Part shown: one piece after another, positions 6,001 through 64,000 of the stretch
Layout: each line of letters starts with the position of its first letter
Position numbering within the stretch: the first letter of the stretch is position 1
IMG/VR virus record: IMGVR_UViG_3300029915_000005
Source: a virus
Length of the DNA stretch: 64,000 bases
Direction: 5' to 3' (one strand)
Position numbers and translations under genes: made by a program
Notes under the pieces: model-generated
Told to the model about the DNA's origin: nothing
Database searches by the model: none
What the model saw: only the letters and a program-made list of their open reading frames with translations

Positions 6001-9000
6001 TACATAATGAATTCGCCCTTATCAGCAATGATGGGAAAAAATCTTGGTATAAAACTCCAATCTATTCTAAATTCATTGATAGTTTGAGTGGCATGACTGA
6101 TTTAAATCAATTAGTACCAGATATTACTTTACCAATAAATCAGCAAACAGGAATATTAATAAATCCTCAACAATCTATTTTTGTTGATAGAATACAAGCA
6201 GCAAATATATATTTTACTGTAATAAATCAGAACTTATCAAATTTGGCAGTCGCATCATCATCAGTTATTTCTTTATTAAGTGCATCTGATCCTATTCCAA
6301 CTACTGGATTTTTGCAACAAATTCCAGACAGAGATGTTTTGAATGAATTAAATATTAATGATTATCCAGAACATTATAAAATTTTATTGACTACTGATGA
6401 TCTTCTATCTCCTGCTGGATGGTCAATAGTAGAAGCTATTAATGGAAATTGGGAATTTTTTAAAGTACAATTATATAATTTAACCAATAACTGGAAATAT
6501 GCTGATTGGTTTTCTTCAAACTATGTAAAGTCTACTCCAATGTTTGTTTTGAATAATATTGGAGAACTACCAAGCATAGTATACAATATAAATGATATTA
6601 TTCAGATTAATACCAATGGAAATAACAATAAAATAATTTATAAAGTTCTTTCCAATGAGTTAAATCCTGATATTTTGGAGTTAAATCCTATATTTATTCA
6701 AAACGGAACCATTCAATTTTTGTCGAATATTTATGATTTTGGATTTGACATTGACGCATTTGATACTACTCCTTTTGATGATGATCCATACATTGAACTT
6801 CGTATGATTACTCAAATACTAAATGATTATATTTTAACTGGAAGCAAAGATTTAACAACAGCAGCCGACGATGCATTTTATGCAGTGTTACAATATGTCA
6901 TTCATGAAAATAAAAATCTTGATTGGTTATTTAAAACTAGTTTTATTACTGTCAATTACATTAATAGAAATTTAAATATTCAAGGATCATATGAACCTGA
7001 TAATCAATCTATTATTGAAGACTTTGTAAATGAATCTACTCCTTTTCATACTCGTATCAGAGCATTTTATGATACTTACACTGCCAATGATTATGGAAAC
7101 ATTGGAACTGTAGATTTTGATTTGCCAGCACAGTATGATGAAAATTATGCCAATATTGTATTAAATTACAGCGATAATGTAAAACCAAACGGATTATTGC
7201 AATTAAGTCAATTTGGCCAAAATGTTGGAATGGCTGCTGATTTTGATTCTTTTTATATTACATCAACTGGCATTCCTATTATTTCTCAAAGTAATGATAG
7301 TATATCACAAGATTGGATTTTTGGATTTAAACAGCATGTGTATTCTGATTCTATTAATTTTAATACTGTTCCCAATAACATTGGGCCTATTGCTTCTGCA
7401 ATAGACGGTGTGCCATTCTACAGCGCAAATAGTGGAATTATGGAAACATTATACCAAACTGGAAACTTAATAAATTCACAAACATTTACAATTAATACTG
7501 TATGGCTAGATCAACAAAATAATATAGATACTGGTATAGGGCTACCAAATGAATTGGGAATTTGCCAATATCTATCAGATCCTTATTTATTATATAATAA
7601 AAATGTTTTAACACATAGTCCATTACTAGGATATGCTTGGGACGGAGTTCCTATATATGGTCCTTATGGATATGTAGAAAATAATGGAGACGGCGGAATT
7701 TTTATTAACACTAGCAGTTATAAGTTATTAACTACTCCTAGATTAGATAAAACTGGATTTTCAATTGTTAATGGTTTGCAATTGGCAAATTATAATATGC
7801 CAACTGGAGAATATATTGAAGATTATGAATATGTTCCTGGTTTTGGTAGTCTTGATCAAAATAATGGAAGATATTGCACAACACCAGAATATCCATTAGG
7901 AACATATGCATACTTTATTTCTGTCGATTCAATTTTTCTAAAACCAGTATATCCATATGTAATTGGGCCAACTTATTACGGAATTCCTTATGGATTAAAA
8001 TATTCATATGTTAATGGTATTAGTACACCAGTTTATCAAAATGGAAAAGTTGCTCTGCCTCAAATTAATATAGCAAATAGTGCCAATTTCATTAGAACAC
8101 CAGATGGTTCTGTTAGTTCTGATTCTTTAACTTTACAGAAACCAATTTATGCTCCTTGGAATGATAATTATATTAACAATAGTCAGTTGATTAGGCATCT
8201 CAATACCACAATAAGATTTGATAGAGTTAATAAAGAAATTGAATATTTAACTGCAAACACATCTTATCCAGCCAAAGAAGTATTATTTAATTCAAATTCT
8301 GGAATATTTATGCAATCGTTAGTTGCCAATGCCAACAGCGCAAATATTATAGATGCAAATATTTGGGGAGTAGCAAATTCAATGGCAATTGCAACTTCTA
8401 CAGCAATGAACCGAATAACAGCAGAATATTCGCCGTCTTCCAACATGTTTGCCAATCAAGCAAGATTACTAATGGACGGTATTGATTATTCTGGTGTAAT
8501 AGTAAAAAATGAAAATTTTGTTGATTCATATTCTGTTCCAACAGGTTCATTGTTTGATTTAGATGATTCTTTTGCAGCAAACACTTCATTAAATATTTCT
8601 TGGAGGCCAGGATTGATTACCAGTTCTGCATTATCCAGCGAAGTTTATAGATTTGGTAACTCATCTGGAGCATTCAATACCAAAACTAAACAATATATAT
8701 CTGCAAATTTAATGAGTGATGATATTTCTGCTCTGAGTATCAATTCTAGTAATTTTACATTGGAATTTTTCGTTAACTTCAGCAATTTAAATGCTGGCAA
8801 TATCATGGTTATGGTAGATACGAGAGATTATTACTATTCCCCATCTGGCTTAGTAATATATAAAAATAATGGCAATCTTTGTTTGGGATCAAATACTTCC
8901 ATGCCATTGTTATCATATAATTTACCACCATTACCACAAAATGAATGGCAATTTATTACTGCACAAGGATATACTACTAATATTAATGGAAATCTTTCTA

Positions 9001-32040: not shown

Positions 32041-32908
32041 TTTGGATATGTCAAAACTAAGTTCAGGAGATGTTAAAGAAATCAATGCTAATGTTGAATC
32101 TTTATCTCTATGGATAAAAGATCATTGTTCAGAATTTTTGAAAATGAAAGGAGCAAATGATCTCGTTCGAGGTGTTAGAGAAAACTCACCAAGTATTTTT
32201 ATGGGATATCCAAGAAAAAATAGAAGAAGTATTGAAGGAGAAATATCTACTGAGCTTACTAAAATAGTAGACAAATATATGCAAATGACTGGTTTTACTG
32301 CTCTTCGAGGAAATAGTTTATTTTGTAATAGTGATCCTGAAATGGCTGAACCATGGGGTGAATTATATGTCATATTCCCTATAAATGGATTTACTTTTGC
32401 GTATAGTAAACGACATACTTGTTGTTCAGGGGCAAGTTATATATTTCCAACAGAAGCTATTGACGAAAATTTACGCACATATGTAGACCAAATTTCTGAT
32501 TTTTGGAATCGTAAAAAATACGATGTCCATGGATATTCAGAAAATATAAAAAAATTTTTAAAATATTGGTATACTCTTAATGAGTTTTATTCCAAAAAAG
32601 TAAATTATTTTAATATTACTACAGTAATAAGAAATATTATTAAGACGTACAATTCTTTTACTAACGACGAAAAGGTTATGTTATCTGGTTCAGTAGTTGA
32701 TCGTGCAATTATTGATCTTGGAAGAGAATTGAAACAGTTAGGAACAGATGAAATAATTGCTAAAAAATTCATAGTAAACAATAAATTGACCAATAAAAAT
32801 TTGAAATGGGCTTTAGAAAATAGCTATGATGTGTGGATTCACGGAGCATATATTGCCATTGACAGAGAATTATATATACATAATTTTGATTTATTTGAAA
32901 AACTATAA
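32021..32908 (+). CDS. ADP-ribosyltransferase-like paralogue 5 (leader MLLREF)
   Basis: AGGAG RBS; LVRG...LRGNSLFCNS...WGELYVIFP...YDVWIHG, with a ~100-aa insertion. Confidence 0.5.
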   Translation: MLLREFDLDMSKLSSGDVKEINANVESLSLWIKDHCSEFLKMKGANDLVRGVRENSPSIFMGYPRKNRRSIEGEISTELTKIVDKYMQMTGFTALRGNSLFCNSDPEMAEPWGELYVIFPINGFTFAYSKRHTCCSGASYIFPTEAIDENLRTYVDQISDFWNRKKYDVHGYSENIKKFLKYWYTLNEFYSKKVNYFNITTVIRNIIKTYNSFTNDEKVMLSGSVVDRAIIDLGRELKQLGTDEIIAKKFIVNNKLTNKNLKWALENSYDVWIHGAYIAIDRELYIHNFDLFEKL

Positions 32909-32941
32909 ATACTAAAGAGAATAAATTATTGGAGTAACTAT

Positions 32942-35900
32942 ATGAAAAAGAAATCATTATTGGGATCAACAAAACCATACAGAAATCCAAAGTGGCTTGG
33001 CCCACAAGATAAAGTTGACAATCTTGGCCCAATTCTTGGAGCAAAACCAAAAAAATCAAAAGTTTTGAGCACAAAATTCATGGGATGCAGCAAAAATATG
33101 ACTAATAAAAATATCATTGCGGAAAATAATAAATATTCATCAAATGAAAAAGCACAACTGGCTGCTGTTCGACGAGATGGTTATGCAATTGAATGGATTG
33201 ACAATCCAAGCGAAGCTGTGCAAATGGCTGCTGTTAAACAAAATGGTTATGCAATTGGATACATCAGCAAGCCAAGCGAAGCTGTGCAAATGGCTGCTAT
33301 TCAACGAAATTATCGTGCAATTGAATACATCGACAAACCAAGCGAAGCTGTGCAAATGGCTGCTGTTCGACAAGATGGTTGGGCAATTGAATACATCGAC
33401 AATCCAAGCGAAGCTGTGCAACTTGCTGCTGTTCAACAAAATGGTCGTGCAATTCAATTCATAAAAAAGCCAACAATTAATGTCAAATTAATGGCTAAAT
33501 CAAAAGTTTTGAGCACGAAATTTCAAGGTTGTTCCATAGATCGCTCCAATAGCAATATTATTTCTGAATATAAAGATGATTATAATCCATCCAATGAAGA
33601 ATGGCTTAAAAATGAAATTGATTACGCCTATGAAATTTTTAATAATGAGGAATTTCCAAGAGTGGACAGAGAAGAAGCTCATCGAAGAATAAAGCTTTTA
33701 AATGCTGAAGCAAAAAAGAAAGGATATATTGATAAGTGGAATAAAGAAGCGCAAGAAGAAGCAGAAAAGACTCATATTAAACCAGAACTTTTAGATGTTC
33801 TTGATGATGTACGAGGCTATATTCATCACGGGAAAACTATAAACAAAGCTGATAGTAATATGTTACATAGTATGGGAATTAGTGAAGCTGTAAACAAATA
33901 TCCAATTTCTGCCAGAATAAATCCAAGATCATTAAAAAAATTATCTTTGTTGGGGCCAGAAGATAAACTTGGATTTGGAGCAGGATTAATAACAATCACT
34001 AATAAAGTATATATTGCAGCATGGCATTCAGAAATTCGTGCAAAACGTGGTTATGATATTTGTAGATTAAGTGAAGGAGCAATTAGAATTAGACAGGGTG
34101 GTTGGGATTGCGGAGATAATACAATAATTGAGTTTGGAAAATATGATGATGACACAATTTATAGACTTAAACAAATAATTCCATATGTTACTTCTCCAAC
34201 AAATAAATTTAAATTAGAGTGTGATGCTCGTGGAATAAATAATGATCATTTATATGTGACTGGAAATAAAGAATATATTATGGCAGAATTGGAAGAATGG
34301 TTAACTCCAAGACAAAAAGTTCCACTTCCAGGAAGTGTTATGGCATTTCATATGCAAGAATCAAAAGAAACTCCAAAATTAACATATAGAGAGTTTGCAA
34401 ACGCAAGCAAAGCAAAGAATAAGAAGTGCCCAACTTGTGAAAGCGAATTTAAGAATGTTCACTCAGCGAATCAAAAATATTGTTCCTCGGATTGTGAAGT
34501 GAAAGGAGAGACAGTTAAAAAATTACAAGAAGCGTTTGATAAATCAATAATAAGAAAAGCTGGATTTATTCCTTATTATTTTGATAACTTTGGAAAACTC
34601 AGAATGATGTTTGTTATGAGCAGTGATCCAACTTATGGCGGAAGCAAGTGGATGATAGCTAAAGGGCATATCGATGGAAAAGAAACAGATTTACAAGCTG
34701 CTTTACGAGAAGGAAACGAAGAGTGTGGGGTTAAGCAGTCAAATATTAAATTTATTAAACTTGGGTGGAAAGGTTTAATAAAAGGTTACACAGAATCTTC
34801 TGAAATGACAATTTATATTGGAGAAGTTAAAGACCCAGTTGATTTTGATAAACCAGGTAACGAAATAAAAGCTGTTAAATGGATAACTCCAGAAGAATTT
34901 AATTCGATTGGAAGAAATAGTCAAAAATTTATTGTTGAAGCATGTGTAAACAAAATTGGAGATAAAATGCGATTTTCTGAAATAAAAGAATCAAGAAAAT
35001 TTACAGTTTATAAAGATGGTGGTTTTTATGGCCCAAAATATGAATATGGATACATAGGAGTTCAAGACGAAGATGGGCATGATATGACTTATATTGGAAA
35101 GAAAAGTGTTCCCAATATGAATATACAGCAAGCAATATCAGCCCTTAAACAACAATTTCCAGGATGTGAAGTGAAAATTAAACTATCAAAAATATCTGAA
35201 GGTATGCTCAATGGACTAACTGTTATGTCTCTCGATCAATTTTTGGATGGCGAAAATCCAGAAGAAACTGAATTGGAAGACGAGATGTTGGGAGAAGCTG
35301 GAGAATTTGGTCTTGGTTCTAAATATCGAAACGCAAGTCATAAAGAAATGCAGGATTATCTTGATAGAACAGTATTCAAGAAGAAAAATAAACTTGATCC
35401 ATACACTATGCCATATATTCACCCAAGCAATGTAAAAAAGAATGCAGATGGTTCAGTTCCTATTATTGATGAAAATGGCGATAAGTATGATCTTGATGCT
35501 TTAAGAGATGCTATTACTAAAAGACCTAGTGGCTTACTTAAACAGAATGAGAAGATGAAACACAGTAATGGTACTGCCACAGTTTATTATAATGTTGGTT
35601 TGCCAGCATTAAAAGGATTGTCAGTTAATGAAGAAACAGGAGAATTTGTAGTTGTTGATACTTGCCCTGGTGCAGGTATTTGCAAAAATTATTGTTTCGC
35701 AATGAAAGGAAGCTATATTATGTTTCCTGGAGTTAGCATGAAGTCTGCGCAAACATTAAATTATTTATTGAATGATCCAGAAGGATTTAAAGCAGAATTA
35801 ATTGGTGAAATTTCAAAAGCAATCGCTAAATGGGATAATTTTACAGATAAAGATTTTAATAAAGGAGATGTTGAAGTTTCAATAAGGTGGCATGATTCAG

Positions 35901-36403
35901 GAGACTTCTTCAGTCCTGAATATATGGATATGGCTTGGGATGTTGCTAGAGAATTCCCAAATAATTTGTTTTATGCTTACACCAAAATAGCTGATGTTGC
36001 AAATTCAGAGGACAAGCCAGATAATTTTGTAATTAATTTTAGTGCTGGTGCATCTTCAACGCAAAGCAATTTAGTTAATATAAGTGCAGTTAAACATAGC
36101 CAAGTAGTGCCCAAAGATTTATTCTATGATTTAATTGCACGCAAAGGTATTAAGCTTATTAAAAATGCAGCAGGAGCCACACAATTTAGAGGTCCAGAAG
36201 AATGGAATGAATTAAAAGATAGATTGGCTGAAAAATATGATATAGATGTTGATACTATTTTAAGTTATGATGAATTTGTGGAAAAGAAGATGAATAAAAC
36301 GCTCGGCACTAAACCAAAATGGAATGTTACAGTTCTTCCTGGAGAAGGAGACGTTTCAGCAACAGATCCTACAGTAAAAGGTACATACTTAATGTTTCAC
36401 TAA
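32942..36403 (+). CDS. Polyprotein 2: DUF4116-like repeats, unknown domains, Zn ribbon, Nudix hydrolase, Gp88-like Cys-cluster domain
   Basis: AAVxxNGxAIxxI repeats; CPTC...CSSDC; Nudix box KGHIDGKETDLQAALREGNEECG; TCPGAGICKNYCFA...IRWHDSGDF...FYAYTK; TATAAATA at 32904. Confidence 0.65.
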   Translation: MKKKSLLGSTKPYRNPKWLGPQDKVDNLGPILGAKPKKSKVLSTKFMGCSKNMTNKNIIAENNKYSSNEKAQLAAVRRDGYAIEWIDNPSEAVQMAAVKQNGYAIGYISKPSEAVQMAAIQRNYRAIEYIDKPSEAVQMAAVRQDGWAIEYIDNPSEAVQLAAVQQNGRAIQFIKKPTINVKLMAKSKVLSTKFQGCSIDRSNSNIISEYKDDYNPSNEEWLKNEIDYAYEIFNNEEFPRVDREEAHRRIKLLNAEAKKKGYIDKWNKEAQEEAEKTHIKPELLDVLDDVRGYIHHGKTINKADSNMLHSMGISEAVNKYPISARINPRSLKKLSLLGPEDKLGFGAGLITITNKVYIAAWHSEIRAKRGYDICRLSEGAIRIRQGGWDCGDNTIIEFGKYDDDTIYRLKQIIPYVTSPTNKFKLECDARGINNDHLYVTGNKEYIMAELEEWLTPRQKVPLPGSVMAFHMQESKETPKLTYREFANASKAKNKKCPTCESEFKNVHSANQKYCSSDCEVKGETVKKLQEAFDKSIIRKAGFIPYYFDNFGKLRMMFVMSSDPTYGGSKWMIAKGHIDGKETDLQAALREGNEECGVKQSNIKFIKLGWKGLIKGYTESSEMTIYIGEVKDPVDFDKPGNEIKAVKWITPEEFNSIGRNSQKFIVEACVNKIGDKMRFSEIKESRKFTVYKDGGFYGPKYEYGYIGVQDEDGHDMTYIGKKSVPNMNIQQAISALKQQFPGCEVKIKLSKISEGMLNGLTVMSLDQFLDGENPEETELEDEMLGEAGEFGLGSKYRNASHKEMQDYLDRTVFKKKNKLDPYTMPYIHPSNVKKNADGSVPIIDENGDKYDLDALRDAITKRPSGLLKQNEKMKHSNGTATVYYNVGLPALKGLSVNEETGEFVVVDTCPGAGICKNYCFAMKGSYIMFPGVSMKSAQTLNYLLNDPEGFKAELIGEISKAIAKWDNFTDKDFNKGDVEVSIRWHDSGDFFSPEYMDMAWDVAREFPNNLFYAYTKIADVANSEDKPDNFVINFSAGASSTQSNLVNISAVKHSQVVPKDLFYDLIARKGIKLIKNAAGATQFRGPEEWNELKDRLAEKYDIDVDTILSYDEFVEKKMNKTLGTKPKWNVTVLPGEGDVSATDPTVKGTYLMFH

Positions 36404-59905: not shown

Positions 59906-60928
59906 TTAAATTATTGGCATTCCAAATTTTTTACTAGTTTCTATGTTTTCTTGAATGATTTTAGATATAGATTCCCTCTCAAAAGCTGTAAGATAATAAG
60001 CTTCAGAATATGAAATACTCCCACGCATATACCATATTAACTTTAATAACTCAGCCTTAATATTTTTTGTTTCTGAATTCATCTTTTCAAGCATTTCAAT
60101 AATTTCAGATTCAAACGCAGTGATAAGTTTATTTCTAAATTGAGTACAAAAATCTAAATCAATTGGCACTGATAATTGTTCTTGACATTTGGAACAAGTT
60201 ATTTCTACATTTGGCAAATAGCATTGCTTAATTGATTCTGCAATATAACTACTAATTTCATTTTGAGATTGAATATCAAGTTGTTTGAACCATTCTTGAA
60301 TATGATATTGAGAAGTAACTGTATTATTTGATTTAGAAATAATAATTTTATTTATAGATTGTGAATGAAATGAGTACAATAAATTTTTTTGTTGTGCAAT
60401 TAATGAAATTAATATTTCTTCATATCCTTCTATTGAATTTAATTTGGATATTTGATAAATTTGTTTTCTTAATTTAAAATCAGCAATTGAAAATATATTG
60501 AATTGTTTATATGTTGGTGGACTAAAATATATAATTAGATCATTCATTATTAATGGAGTAAACCACTTGTTGGCTGATAAAGAATTTATATATGAAGATA
60601 AATTAATTTCGTAAGGATCTTGAAAAGAACATTTGGGACAAGTAATTAATAATTCAACTTTCATACCAGTTGTTGCAATTTTTATATTTGCCAATATTTG
60701 TTGAATATCACAAATTAACAAATTTTCAGGCTCAATAATTTCAGGACAGCAATTTTTAATTATTTCTTCAGTTGCTTTTCCAGACAATAAAGCGTCTGGT
60801 GTTCTTAAAGTAAATTCATCCAATATAACCATCGAGTGAACAGAAATTTGCTTAGTGTTTCCAGTTATGGAATCACTAAGCAAATTTGTATAAAGTTTTG
60901 GTCGATTAAATGATATTTTGTTTTGCAT
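59906..60928 (-). CDS. Baseplate hub protein-like (T4 gp26-like) with C-terminal extension
   Basis: DEFTLRTPDALLSG, CCP.I, DI..IL..IKIAT.G, CPKC and CSKC; WYMRGSISY tail. Confidence 0.6.
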   Translation of the reverse strand: MQNKISFNRPKLYTNLLSDSITGNTKQISVHSMVILDEFTLRTPDALLSGKATEEIIKNCCPEIIEPENLLICDIQQILANIKIATTGMKVELLITCPKCSFQDPYEINLSSYINSLSANKWFTPLIMNDLIIYFSPPTYKQFNIFSIADFKLRKQIYQISKLNSIEGYEEILISLIAQQKNLLYSFHSQSINKIIISKSNNTVTSQYHIQEWFKQLDIQSQNEISSYIAESIKQCYLPNVEITCSKCQEQLSVPIDLDFCTQFRNKLITAFESEIIEMLEKMNSETKNIKAELLKLIWYMRGSISYSEAYYLTAFERESISKIIQENIETSKKFGMPII

Positions 60929-61862
60929 TTTGCTCTGGAAGAAATGAAGATCCCATAAATGTTATTTCAGCTTGCCATTCAGGTGGCGCACCAGCTTTTA
61001 ATTCGTCTAAGGTGCTATGTTGAAGTGGTATTGAAAAAGCATATTTTTTTCTTTGTGCTTCCAAATGATCACGAATAGCATTAAAAAATTCAATATCCAT
61101 TCCACGAATAATTTGATTAATTTGCTTTTCATCTTGAGGAGTGGAAGATGTGAGAGAAACAATTGTGTTATTATTGGAATCAATTAGTTCAAGAGTTTTA
61201 ATACTGTCACATACTAAATTTATTGCAGTATTGGATAATTGATTTATACTATCAGTGAATAATTTTTCATCTTTAATATTTTCATTTGAATCAAAATTTT
61301 TTGTTAATGCTTTTTTCTGCTGGCTAATATCTTTAGAAATATTAAATAAATATTTTAGTGAAATTGGATAAATTGTAAGTGATATTTTTTGCCCATCTTC
61401 GCTTTCTATGATAATAGAATCATCCCATTTATCTTTTCGTGATAAAAGTTCACACAAAAAAGTTGTTAATGATATTTTAAGTGTTCTTACTAATTTAGTA
61501 TTTGGTACTGAGACATTTAATTCAAAATCATCTCCATAACTGGCCAATCTTATAGCTAACAAAATAGTATCTACATCAATATTTGGTATATTTTCAGGAT
61601 TCAATATTCCAGGTAGGCATTCTTTGATTAGATCATATGTAGATTTTCCAGAAAGACTAATATCTCCTGCCCTAAATTTTATATCAGCATCAGCAGTCAT
61701 GGCAAATACTGACAAACTTCCATCTTTATCTAAAGATAGACTATTTTCTGGATACCATTGTCCTTTGCTTGGAAGAAATAATGATAATTTCTTTTTTCTA
61801 AAAAAAGAAGTAAGCGGATTTATTTCTGGAGTTTCATTATTTGATGAAGTAATTGTTTTCAT
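60906..61862 (-). CDS. Baseplate hub protein-like (T4 gp26-like)
   Basis: NPL..FFR..KL...LPSKG.WYP, VFAMTADAD, DVDTILLAIRLASYG. Confidence 0.65.
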   Translation of the reverse strand: MKTITSSNNETPEINPLTSFFRKKKLSLFLPSKGQWYPENSLSLDKDGSLSVFAMTADADIKFRAGDISLSGKSTYDLIKECLPGILNPENIPNIDVDTILLAIRLASYGDDFELNVSVPNTKLVRTLKISLTTFLCELLSRKDKWDDSIIIESEDGQKISLTIYPISLKYLFNISKDISQQKKALTKNFDSNENIKDEKLFTDSINQLSNTAINLVCDSIKTLELIDSNNNTIVSLTSSTPQDEKQINQIIRGMDIEFFNAIRDHLEAQRKKYAFSIPLQHSTLDELKAGAPPEWQAEITFMGSSFLPEQNAKQNII

Positions 61863-61877
61863 TGTAAACCTCTGAAG

Positions 61878-61896
61878 TATTTATGTGAGCTAAATA
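61878..61896. promoter_or_regulatory. Back-to-back late-type TAAATA promoters
   Basis: TATTTA at 61878-61883 and TAAATA at 61891-61896 between divergent structural genes. Confidence 0.55.
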
Positions 61897-61926
61897 CATA
61901 AGAATATAATTTTTTAATGGTGATAA

Positions 61927-64000
61927 ATGGCAACAGTAAGAATAGTTTCTAAGGGCAATACGCTGGATGGGTCAGAACTCGACAATATTGCGTCTGAGGA
62001 GACACTGTTAGCATTGCTTGAGCAATTGAAAATTATTAATGGCGGAGCTTCAGAAATTAAAAAAGAATCAACAAAAACAAAAACAAATACTGATAAGCAT
62101 TTTGACTTACTGGGGAAAGTAATTGGTAAAAATAAAGCAGATACAGTTCAACACATATTTAATGCAATTAAAGGAGTTGGGGCTGGCGAGGCTGGTAGTG
62201 CGGGTGGCTTGATAGCTAAAATTGCTCCAGAATTGGCTGTTATGACTGCTTTTATTGCTGTATTGGACGTAGCAAAAAATACATTTTTTGGATTAGTTAA
62301 TACTTCAGCATTATTGGTTAAATCATTTGTTGATGGCCAGTCATCGTTGTCTGATTATACCAAAGCTTTAGCAGCAGGAACACAGCATATTTTGATTATT
62401 GGCACATTGGTTGGTCTTTTTTCTAAAGGAATAGAAATTATTGATTCTTGGAATAATAAGTTATATGAACTTAACACTGTTGGTGCTGGATTTAATAATA
62501 GTCTTATTGAAATGAGACAGCGTGCGGCTGATGCTGGCTTATCGTTAGAAGATTACTCCAAAATAATTATCGCAAACAAAGATAATTTTGCTACTTTTGG
62601 TTCCATAATGAATGGAGTTAATACTTATAATAAAATAGCCACTATTTCTATGAGAGATTATACAGATCAATTAGCTAATATGGGTATTTCTTTATCGCAG
62701 TATCAAGAAGAGTTACCAGGGGTATTATCTCTTTTCGGGGCATCTATGAAAGCTCATGGGGCAAGTGATAAACAATTAGCTTCTAGCGCCATTGAATTGA
62801 CCAGTCAATTTGATGCAATGGCAAAATTAACAGGAAAAACTCGTGAACAGCAAGTGGCTGATATGCAAAAATTAACTGCTGACGCTGCTTGGAAATTAAA
62901 ATTATCTGAAATGAGCGATTCAGAAAGAACACAAGAACTTGCAGCATTAAATGAAGTAAATTCAACAATGGGAGCAACTGCTGCTGAATTATACAAAATG
63001 AAAGTTCTTGGTATTGTTCCATTAGGGAAAGAAATGCAAATATTAATGGCAACTGTTCCTGGATTAGATAGACAATTTACAGAAATGTCTCAATTAGCAG
63101 CACAAGGAAAACTTCTTCCTGGAGAAATGGATAGAAGAATTGCTGAAATGGTTGGTTCAGGCTTACGCGCTGGTAAAGGATTGGAACAAATTCTTAAAGC
63201 AGCCACATCAGGTATCGGAGGAACACCAGAAACTATTGCAAAGATTCAAAGTGAATTAATGGCTAATAGCCAATCATTTCTTGATAAAAATGGTGTTTTT
63301 AATGAAGAATTATTTAGACAAAATCTTGCAACTGTAAGAGCACAAGCTGATAAAGAAGATGGAATTCGCAAATCATTGGCTGAGTGGAATTCATCAGTTA
63401 AACTATTGCAAGATTTTTTCTTTCAAAAAATATTACAACCAATAATGTATAAACTTGCCCCAATTATATCGAATATAGTTAAAAAATTTGAAGCCAAGCA
63501 AGGATCTTTACAAGGATTGATAGATGGAGTAGTTAATATTGTTGTTGGATTTGTTGGTATTGTTGGAAGTATTGTATCATTCGTAATGAATAATTGGGGG
63601 TTGATTAAAATTATTTTTGATGTATTGTTGGTTTTGGGTGTAGCATTCTTAGGAGCGGTTATTGGCATAACACTGGCTGCTGTAGGATTGAGTATAGCTC
63701 TTGCGCCTGCTGCACTAATAACTGGTGCTCTTCTTGGCGGGTTAGTTGCATTAGTTGCATTGTTGGCGTCTATCGGGCTTATTAGTATGCCAACATTACC
63801 ATCAGTTGCAGGGATTACTAGCGCAAAAATTCCATCAATGCCAAAGCTATCTTCAATGGAAAATGCTACTTCAGAAAATACATCAGTTTTTCAACCACCA
63901 ACTAATGTTCAATCAATAACAAGTGAAAACTCTTCATCAACTATAGGATCAAAATTGGATGATCATTATGCCATTTTACAACAAATAAGAGATTCAATAC
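61927..64000 (+). CDS. Tape-measure-like protein, 3'-truncated by the window (not in the ORF track)
   Basis: Open frame from ATG 61927 (MATVRI...ASEETLLALL) to the window end; helical Ala/Gly-rich with a long hydrophobic stretch at about 63520-63790; next to hub genes. Confidence 0.7.
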   Translation, partial: MATVRIVSKGNTLDGSELDNIASEETLLALLEQLKIINGGASEIKKESTKTKTNTDKHFDLLGKVIGKNKADTVQHIFNAIKGVGAGEAGSAGGLIAKIAPELAVMTAFIAVLDVAKNTFFGLVNTSALLVKSFVDGQSSLSDYTKALAAGTQHILIIGTLVGLFSKGIEIIDSWNNKLYELNTVGAGFNNSLIEMRQRAADAGLSLEDYSKIIIANKDNFATFGSIMNGVNTYNKIATISMRDYTDQLANMGISLSQYQEELPGVLSLFGASMKAHGASDKQLASSAIELTSQFDAMAKLTGKTREQQVADMQKLTADAAWKLKLSEMSDSERTQELAALNEVNSTMGATAAELYKMKVLGIVPLGKEMQILMATVPGLDRQFTEMSQLAAQGKLLPGEMDRRIAEMVGSGLRAGKGLEQILKAATSGIGGTPETIAKIQSELMANSQSFLDKNGVFNEELFRQNLATVRAQADKEDGIRKSLAEWNSSVKLLQDFFFQKILQPIMYKLAPIISNIVKKFEAKQGSLQGLIDGVVNIVVGFVGIVGSIVSFVMNNWGLIKIIFDVLLVLGVAFLGAVIGITLAAVGLSIALAPAALITGALLGGLVALVALLASIGLISMPTLPSVAGITSAKIPSMPKLSSMENATSENTSVFQPPTNVQSITSENSSSTIGSKLDDHYAILQQIRDSI

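Follow-up and report, generated by a model that had tools for sequence, protein, structure and literature searches.

The IMG/VR virus record IMGVR_UViG_3300029915_000005 was analysed over a stretch of 64,000 nucleotides (nt), hereafter the window, in which positions 32942 to 36403 of the plus strand form a single intact frame for a protein of 1153 amino acids, P0001 (polyprotein 2). This protein joins DUF4116, Zn-ribbon, Nudix and GP88 domains with three unnamed modules, and comparison with its relatives strongly supports an origin by in-frame fusion of neighbouring tagged genes, that is, genes whose products begin with a short tag ending in hydrophobic-x-Glu. We consider it fairly probable that P0001 is a late product of a T4-like phage in which such genes were fused, and that the chain is targeted to the prohead, cut at its x-E motifs and injected in pieces. 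An assembly artefact or a frameshift error was ruled out as the source of the long frame, since the identical protein is called on nine contigs from at least four samples (ENA and JGI). Bog samples (JGI 3300029913 and 3300029922) are among those with the contig.

The fusion is visible at the end of the Nudix module (residues 531–675; 34532..34966, on the plus strand like all features of P0001 given here). In eight of nine relatives Nudix is the last module and the protein stops 4–12 residues past a conserved cysteine, whereas P0001 reads on past this tail (...ACVNKIGDK-MRFSEIKE). The eight residues that follow the tail, M676-RFSEIKE (676–683; 34967..34990), are an exact fit to the start of 61 distinct free-standing GP88 proteins, M-[KNR]-[FI]-x-E-L-x-E-G (leucine or isoleucine at position 6 in 59 of 61, glutamate at position 8 in 56 of 61). 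Comparison with loci L094 and L085 shows this internal tag to be the former N-terminus of a GP88 gene.

These two loci keep the parts in separate genes. In L085, the protein P0105 (three copies of module D, Zn ribbon, Nudix) ends GKIDK-TAA-TAA, and a 17-nt spacer with GAGGA leads to a separate GP88 gene of 420 amino acids whose product begins MRYWELIRE/SVLNGL (a slash marks the x-E site). L094 has four genes in a row that are collinear with P0001 (leader, Zn ribbon and module C; module D; Nudix with G' and Zn'; GP88), the Nudix and GP88 genes being in the same frame and 24 nt apart. The GP88 start of L094, MRFSELKE/S-MLNGLTVMSLKQF (SMLNGLTVMSL), corresponds in P0001 to MRFSEIKE/S-[RKFTVYK...KIKLSKISE/G]-MLNGLTVMSLDQF, where an insertion of 70 amino acids (mini-module G, residues 684–753; 34991..35200) separates the tag from MLNGLTVMSL; the GP88 genes of L094, L085 and L001 lack this insertion. 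With the loss of stop and spacer in the lineage of the window, the GP88 start codon came to lie directly after the last Nudix codon (Lys675). The tight packing of these genes makes fusions easy: in L096 the tagged gene that follows P0112 (a leader-Zn-Nudix polyprotein) begins with an ATG that overlaps the P0112 stop (6003–6008, ATATGA; product beginning MRLTEINN), and in L098 the tagged Nudix gene (MTFNEISE/G) shares 11 nt with a gene bearing the leader. A one-base indel at the L096 overlap would fuse P0112 with the tagged gene that follows it.

The Nudix module also exists on its own, as P0117, a complete free gene of 153 amino acids in syntenic position with the 8-residue N-terminal tag MTFNEISE/G. 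A preliminary description of this DNA had proposed that such polyproteins grow by fusing tagged genes, and for P0001 the split loci L085 and L094, the 61 free GP88 genes and P0117 bear this out. It had asked for relatives with a free-standing GP88 domain, which the 61 tagged genes provide, their L-x-E aligning with the internal sites of the window. The opposite pattern, homologues that are always full length and collinear and lack conserved x-E motifs at their boundaries, was not seen: the x-E motifs are conserved, and among proteins of 634–2018 amino acids no full-length collinear homologue of P0001 was found, only proteins sharing DUF4116.

The GP88 family was surveyed through the C-terminal 400 residues of P0001, which match at least 80 IMG/VR loci at 37–63% identity. 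Among the best 80 loci, three of which end at a contig edge, every complete frame carries the GP88 domain as a free-standing open reading frame (ORF) of 383–837 amino acids; since homologue searches were seeded from the first 500 residues or limited to the best 80 loci, GP88 domains inside other long proteins could be missed. The free genes have their own ribosome-binding sites and occur on very diverse contigs, and those of the nearest relatives, L094 and L001, at 68% identity each, also stand alone. In all 23 aligned homologues a second site, [VL]-[DG]-E/A, closes a propeptide of 45–110 amino acids, nearly always with a ..GI.VMS..QF motif; in P0001 this site is LGE 783–785, at the end of the remaining propeptide (residues 754–785; 35201..35296), which comprises MLNGLTVMSLDQFL and an acidic linker.

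Mini-module G ends in a second tag-like stretch, IKLSKISE (residues 746–753), which MAFFT places in the start-tag columns of the 23 free GP88 genes. Its DNA shares 14 of 27 nt with that of the MRFSEIKE tag (p ~0.024), and it could represent a duplicated site or what is left of a second tag. Mini-module G is partly homologous to a stretch behind the Nudix domain of P0114; among proteins of 44–142 amino acids no free-standing copy was found, P0114 alone having a partial one. The long GP88 homologues L071, L022, L056 and L019 hold 2–7 unrelated mini-modules with the closing hexapeptide QGVAE/G (or GVNE/A), and in L071 (8621–11131, 837 amino acids) up to seven of them lie between the start tag and the GP88 core. 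As these long relatives close every mini-module with QGVAE/G, growth by punctuated insertion is common in the GP88 group.

The preliminary description had also read the internal ATG at 34967, together with an intact ribosome-binding site and leader in front of it, as the relic of a once separate gene. For the ATG and its tag this reading stands, and they can safely be taken as a fossil gene start; for the ribosome-binding site it is ambiguous. A Shine-Dalgarno-like GGAG (34958..34961) lies 5 nt before the ATG (GGAG-N5-ATG, 34958–34969), and motifs of this type precede 2 of the 172 internal in-frame ATGs in the long ORFs of the window (1.2%). The ambiguity arises because the GGAG consists of Gly-Asp codons of the Nudix tail: GGAGATAAA encodes Gly-Asp-Lys, and the corresponding tails of relatives read IGND-stop, KIDK-stop and SIG-. 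The true intergenic ribosome-binding site of L085 and L094 (GAGGA) lies in the spacer that is deleted from the window. An ancestor resembling P0112 that ended in ...KI-stop, followed by GGAGATAAA-ATG, would fit the fossil ribosome-binding site equally well, and internal initiation at M676 is possible. The only other ATG of this kind (35726–35740, CCTGGAGTTAGCATG) belongs to the folded GP88 core; chance is its most likely explanation.

All eight hydrophobic-x-Glu motifs listed previously as separating the segments were found: IAE 59–61 (nt 33116), ISE 207–209 (33560), ISE 313–315 (33878), MQE 471–473, LQE 528–530, IKE 681–683, ISE 751–753 and LGE 783–785. Their weight comes from position, conservation and the duplication of the leader described below, not from their count. 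AlphaFold, given an alignment of relatives, produced a model in which all eight sites fall in stretches with a predicted local distance difference test (pLDDT) score below 50 (22–215, 312–344, 456–480, 528–530, 675–684, 746–762 and 770–786), compared with 1 of 13 other [ILVMF]xE motifs (Fisher p=4e-5; p=3e-4 if the poorly modelled residues 1–215 are excluded). Twelve of these 13 lie in folded parts and the thirteenth sits inside the tag. Relatives retain the glutamate at all boundaries examined but one, ISE 313–315, the weakest site: of the two relatives that hold module C, P0105 keeps it there and P0108 does not clearly do so. In the tags, leader ends, D-module ends and pre-Nudix sites examined in the relatives, the residue preceding the proposed cut (P1) is glutamate, with no aspartate seen, even though these sites lie in acidic linkers where unconstrained exchange of the two would be expected.

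The first 61 residues (32942..33124) form a leader rich in lysine, proline and glycine, a putative targeting propeptide with pLDDT below 50 that ends in NIIAE. It follows a pattern of about 60 amino acids, ..KPYRNPKWLGP..GPILG..KKSK.LSTKFMGCS..II.E, which is conserved in P0107, P0109, P0112, P0113, P0115 and the first gene of L094, is internal in P0108 and P0118, and ends in hydrophobic-x-E in every relative that has it. With a single occurrence of its motif per genome, in the window as in the relatives, the leader is not a general tag. Its second half is found again at residues 186–209 (KSKVLSTKFQGCS...NIISE; 33497..33568), at the junction behind the DUF4116 repeat module (residues 62–185; 33125..33496). 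While a BLAST self-comparison of P0001 gave nothing useful, Smith-Waterman alignment of the pieces scored residues 38–61 against 186–209 at 85 (shuffles 32.7 +/- 4.3), and the corresponding DNA (33053–33124 and 33497–33568) is identical at 51 of 72 nt, including the first 20. This is a true internal duplication flanking the DUF4116 module, and the copy includes the ...II(A/S)E end; L094 shares the NIISE/Y junction with P0001.

The modules between the leader and the GP88 part are found in other combinations elsewhere. DUF4116 is a separate gene in L086. Helical module C (residues 210–315; 33569..33886), helical in the AlphaFold model and ending in MGISE, has homologues in P0108, P0105 and the first gene of L094. 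Module D (residues 316–473, GAGLITITNKVY...GAIRIR...; 33887..34360), a folded alpha/beta unit in the model that ends in FHMQE, has ten further copies in P0104–P0109, nine of which retain the C-terminal tail (the P0104 copy is cut short); each of these nine tails ends ..S.M.[YF]W[HR]..E or a close variant. The Zn ribbon (residues 474–530, CPTC...CSSDC; 34361..34531) ends in KKLQE and also precedes Nudix in P0105, P0112 and P0113. In all ten proteins with the KAG[FI]IPY Nudix core, that of the window included, an [LIV]xE motif stands 5–10 amino acids before the core. An exhaustive HMMER search with residues 210–473 gave seven proteins and a search with residues 474–683 seven more, and the proteins from both searches (P0105–P0118 among them) reuse the same modules in shuffled orders. 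The resemblance of module D (GLITITNKVY...) to segment 3 of another long protein, polyprotein 1, which the preliminary description had noted, did not hold up: a profile of 11 module-D copies gave 1.1 bits, which is not significant and does not count as a sign of kinship, though the alignment falls where that description had pointed. Two DUF4116 proteins from other large phage contigs, P0006 and P0004, have repeat blocks split by ..KPI[AT]E/SRDLNSMSE.. or L[TI]E/S.. junctions, which hints that unrelated long proteins of phages are punctuated in the same way.

The domains named in the preliminary description were recovered by profile searches. Pfam reports DUF4116 in four stretches over residues ~60–200 (PF13475, 43 bits), NUDIX at 555–653 (41.2 bits, cut-off 21.1), GP88 at 867–1058 (PF17338, 101.6 bits, cut-off 24.4) and a weak Zn-hook-like match at 481–509, and a PHROGs scan adds Zn-ribbon and Nudix families; the leader, modules C and D, and module G had no Pfam match. 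The Nudix box GHIDGKETDLQAALREGNEECGV is intact (GHIDGKE-TDLQAAL-REGNEECGV, following GX5EX7REUXEEXGU), and in a Foldseek search the nearest folds are Ap4A hydrolases and RppH (template modelling (TM) score 0.75–0.82, E 5e-9 to Ap4A hydrolases).

The GP88 core (residues 786–1153; 35297..36400) was modelled with a pLDDT of 83 and a predicted TM score of 0.82. It has the invariant cysteines C908, C914 and C918, spaced CX5CX3C, and could, on thin grounds, be an iron-sulfur enzyme carried in the virion. The family profile had no match among PDB sequences, an Atlas structural search matched only its own GP88 cluster (TM 0.79), and Foldseek returned only weak TIM-barrel rows. VIA-align gave Z scores of 4.4–5.5 over 146–213 aligned residues with at least 12 radical S-adenosylmethionine (SAM) chains, a signal not separated from unrelated rows. 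The CX5CX3C spacing of the core does not match the radical-SAM cluster motif, CX3CX2C at the start of a partial (beta/alpha) barrel.

The protease expected to cut such sites is encoded in the same genome. Exact-protein look-ups from the last genes of the window led to L093, which overlaps window positions 60276–64000 with 100% identity over 3725 nt. It encodes a 216-residue Peptidase_S77 (PF03420, 87 bits against a cut-off of 27) with GDHP (His) and SSRG (Ser) motifs and a match to T4 gp21 (PDB 5JBL, E 1.5e-14); the same family is found in two relatives with more complete genomes. The protease gene (L093:11819–12469) lies next to Portal_T4 (with an intein) and a Gp23-like capsid protein of 394 amino acids (L093:15241–16425), and L093 also encodes a scaffold-like protein of 361 amino acids (L093:14140–15225). 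T4 gp21 cuts after glutamate in L/I-x-E, and aspartate at P1 blocks processing (PMC9026906). The scaffold-like protein has 21 [IL]xE motifs, a density of 58 per 1000 residues where P0001 has 14, and the capsid protein starts MSTPLLE..ALLE..VLE..LSE, with four L-x-E in its first 42 residues, which is the pattern that a gp21-like specificity predicts. The scaffold and capsid genes of L093 lie ~12 kb past the end of the window.

Mechanistically, the P0001 chain would be made late and would enter the scaffolding core of the prohead through its N-terminal leader, its tags or both. There, the gp21-type serine protease would cut after glutamate at exposed [ILVM]-x-E linker sites, which we propose to be E61, E209, E315, E473, E530, E683, E753 and E785. 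The freed pieces, among them an Ap4A-hydrolase/RppH-like Nudix enzyme and the GP88 enzyme, would remain inside the head and pass into the host together with the DNA, so that one targeting signal would deliver several effectors in fixed proportion. On this reading any tagged gene can be added to the chain, because its tag doubles as the linker to be cut. As a more tentative generalisation, which we think somewhat more apt to fail than to hold, the short tag would be a universal joint in this group of T4-like phages, at once prohead address and cutting site: tagged genes could be fused head-to-tail with a neighbour or inserted behind a tag without loss of function, giving self-dismantling polyproteins that bring enzymes into the head at a fixed ratio under one targeting signal, and the 60-residue leader would represent a second, undescribed class of targeting propeptide.

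Several observations weigh against a fused, targeted and cut chain. The phage is known only from metagenomes; that P0001 is packaged and cleaved is what we infer from the example of T4, from a protease gene in the genome and from where the sites lie and how they are conserved. The bare [IL]xE motif is not enriched (16 in P0001, 11.5 +/- 3.0 in shuffles), and ISE313 and LQE528 fall in predicted helices. At the D-module ends of relatives the residue two before P1 (P3) can be M, L, I, V, T, G or W, and a strict L/I-x-E therefore does not hold for all sites. The Zn ribbon and Nudix, which travel together in several relatives, may stay joined. The N-terminus of P0001 itself is the 61-residue leader rather than a short tag, and a targeting role for this leader is a guess. 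A T4-type late-promoter motif precedes the gene, as described below, and such motifs are not enriched across the AT-rich window (23 found, 16.4 expected). Finally, L094 and L085 have irregular frames: the first three collinear genes of L094 (3996–5786) lie in frames 3/1/3, with the module-D gene starting at a TTG inside the module, and the first D module of L085 (1–300) is interrupted by a stop at 179–181. Decay of the polyproteins, sequencing errors or frameshift sites could account for this, and part of the split state could therefore be breakage and not ancestral.

The last point would suit the reverse direction of events, in which the long polyprotein is ancestral and the relatives split it, gaining start codons at old cleavage sites. 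We regard this as very improbable, given 61 distinct free GP88 genes on diverse contigs with a conserved Met-tag and their own ribosome-binding sites, a fusion confined, among the loci surveyed, to the lineage of the window while the nearest relatives L094 and L001 are free, and a Nudix domain that is terminal in eight of nine relatives. The chance-level motif count would instead suit an ordinary multi-domain ('polyvalent') protein, a real fusion whose x-E motifs are only relics of earlier N-termini and flexible linkers and whose 130-kDa chain acts whole, be it packaged or not; cutting is, as said, what we infer, and phage polyvalent proteins are often thought to act or travel whole, as with N4 vRNAP (PMC5512222). 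Relics would decay, yet the P1 glutamate is kept, with no aspartate, across the tags, the leader ends, the nine D copies and the ten pre-Nudix sites. Half of the leader was duplicated along with its ...IISE end, long relatives repeat QGVAE/G up to seven times, and the genome encodes a matching protease, all of which makes the uncut chain unlikely, if the least unlikely of these alternatives.

A further explanation, with a distinctly smaller chance than the uncut chain, assumes two products: GGAG-N5-ATG would drive internal initiation, the tagged GP88 protein would be made alone, and the fusion would be a minor or neutral by-product of stop loss. The rarity of a Shine-Dalgarno-like motif with ATG inside ORFs, the intact MRFSEIKE tag and the close translational coupling, in relatives, of the Nudix/polyprotein gene with the next gene would all agree with it. 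However, the Gly-Asp codons of a tail common to relatives fully explain the GGAG, and the identical fused frame is kept on nine contigs from several samples. Moreover, internal initiation would add to the full-length product, in which the tag would still be a cleavable linker.

The start of P0001 at 32942 is confirmed by relatives beginning MKKKKTILGS or MKKSILST, and a Shine-Dalgarno GGAG (32931..32934) lies 7 nt before the ATG. The T4-type late-promoter motif TATAAATA (32904..32911) lies 31 nt 5' of the start codon and is the sole copy associated with the P0001 ORF, no further copy being present within 32942–36403; this box is suggestive, and only that, of late expression. The window comes from an uncultured low-GC (~30%) T4-like phage and encodes a T4-type family-B DNA polymerase, homing endonucleases and T7-kinase-like genes. 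A megablast of 10 kb against known phages found no match, and tblastn against them gave single-domain matches only, the majority of them in large or jumbo phages. A tag of the same kind, M-[KR]-[IL]-x-E-[IVL], opens six more ORFs of the window (13255, 24130, 24692, 30629, 31225 and 38628 on the minus strand), as would be expected if this genome encodes a larger set of head-targeted proteins.

The capsid-targeting tag of T4 has the sequence MKTYQEFIAE. The likeness of P0001 to the T4 internal proteins IPI-III and Alt lies in a short tag ending L/I-x-E (here M-[KNR]-[FI]-x-E-[LI]-x-E) as the only sequence shared among tagged proteins, a gp21-type Peptidase_S77 in the genome and an expected delivery into the host. 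In T4, however, each tagged protein is a separate small gene whose tag is removed at the N-terminus (Alt is also trimmed C-terminally), whereas in P0001 the tags are internal, have 8 residues instead of 10 and follow a 61-residue leader, in a protein known from sequence alone. The first 10 residues of IPIII, its capsid-targeting sequence, suffice to carry foreign proteins into the T4 head, and such sequences have been suggested to let T4-like phages pack varied proteins (PMC9026906).

With the polyvalent phage proteins (PMC5512222) P0001 shares several unrelated domains per chain, a setting of late or injected genes and domain shuffling among relatives. For those proteins, release by embedded peptidase domains (MPTase autoproteolysis) has been proposed (PMC5512222), while the boundaries of P0001 carry the motif of a separate head-maturation protease. 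No MPTase, ART-PolyVal, DarB-type helicase/methylase or ParB-like domain was found in the Pfam and PHROG scans of P0001, although the unnamed modules could hide one. In phiKZ, 201phi2-1 and SPN3US a T4-related prohead protease cuts after glutamate at a three-residue motif, and several head proteins are cut multiply (PMC10052503); many giant-phage head proteins are ejected into the host (PMC10052503; PMC9026906). Nearly all mapped cuts in SPN3US remove or shred N-terminal propeptides (A/S/G-x-E) and are not described as separating enzyme domains that are free in relatives. In myoviruses, Nudix domains that are fused to head proteins or whose genes accompany late or head genes have been predicted to be packaged and injected (PMC9503650); the Nudix of P0001 differs in being a module of a punctuated chain, not fused to portal, MuF or protease. 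A portal-fused Nudix is seen in phrog_15528. In our literature searches we met no polyprotein in which the capsid-targeting tags of once separate genes have become the borders between domains and for which both split and fused relatives are on record. The tag-and-protease system itself is that of T4, and polyvalent chains were already known.

Phage proteins injected with the DNA are the first move against host defences, and, T4 apart, little is known of how sets of such proteins are put together and diversify. The locus described here offers a natural series in which the same modules are met as tagged genes standing apart, as genes that overlap, fused into one chain, and in a chain with insertions, and thereby shows one concrete route by which repertoires of injected proteins grow. 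It also predicts mature protein ends that can be tested by mass spectrometry. If the proposed cuts are true, the capsid-targeting principle of T4 would extend from single small proteins to polyproteins, many of the very long 'hypothetical' late ORFs of large uncultured phages would be explained, and phage engineering would gain a design rule, with several cargoes carried under one tag and the tag itself as the cleavable linker.

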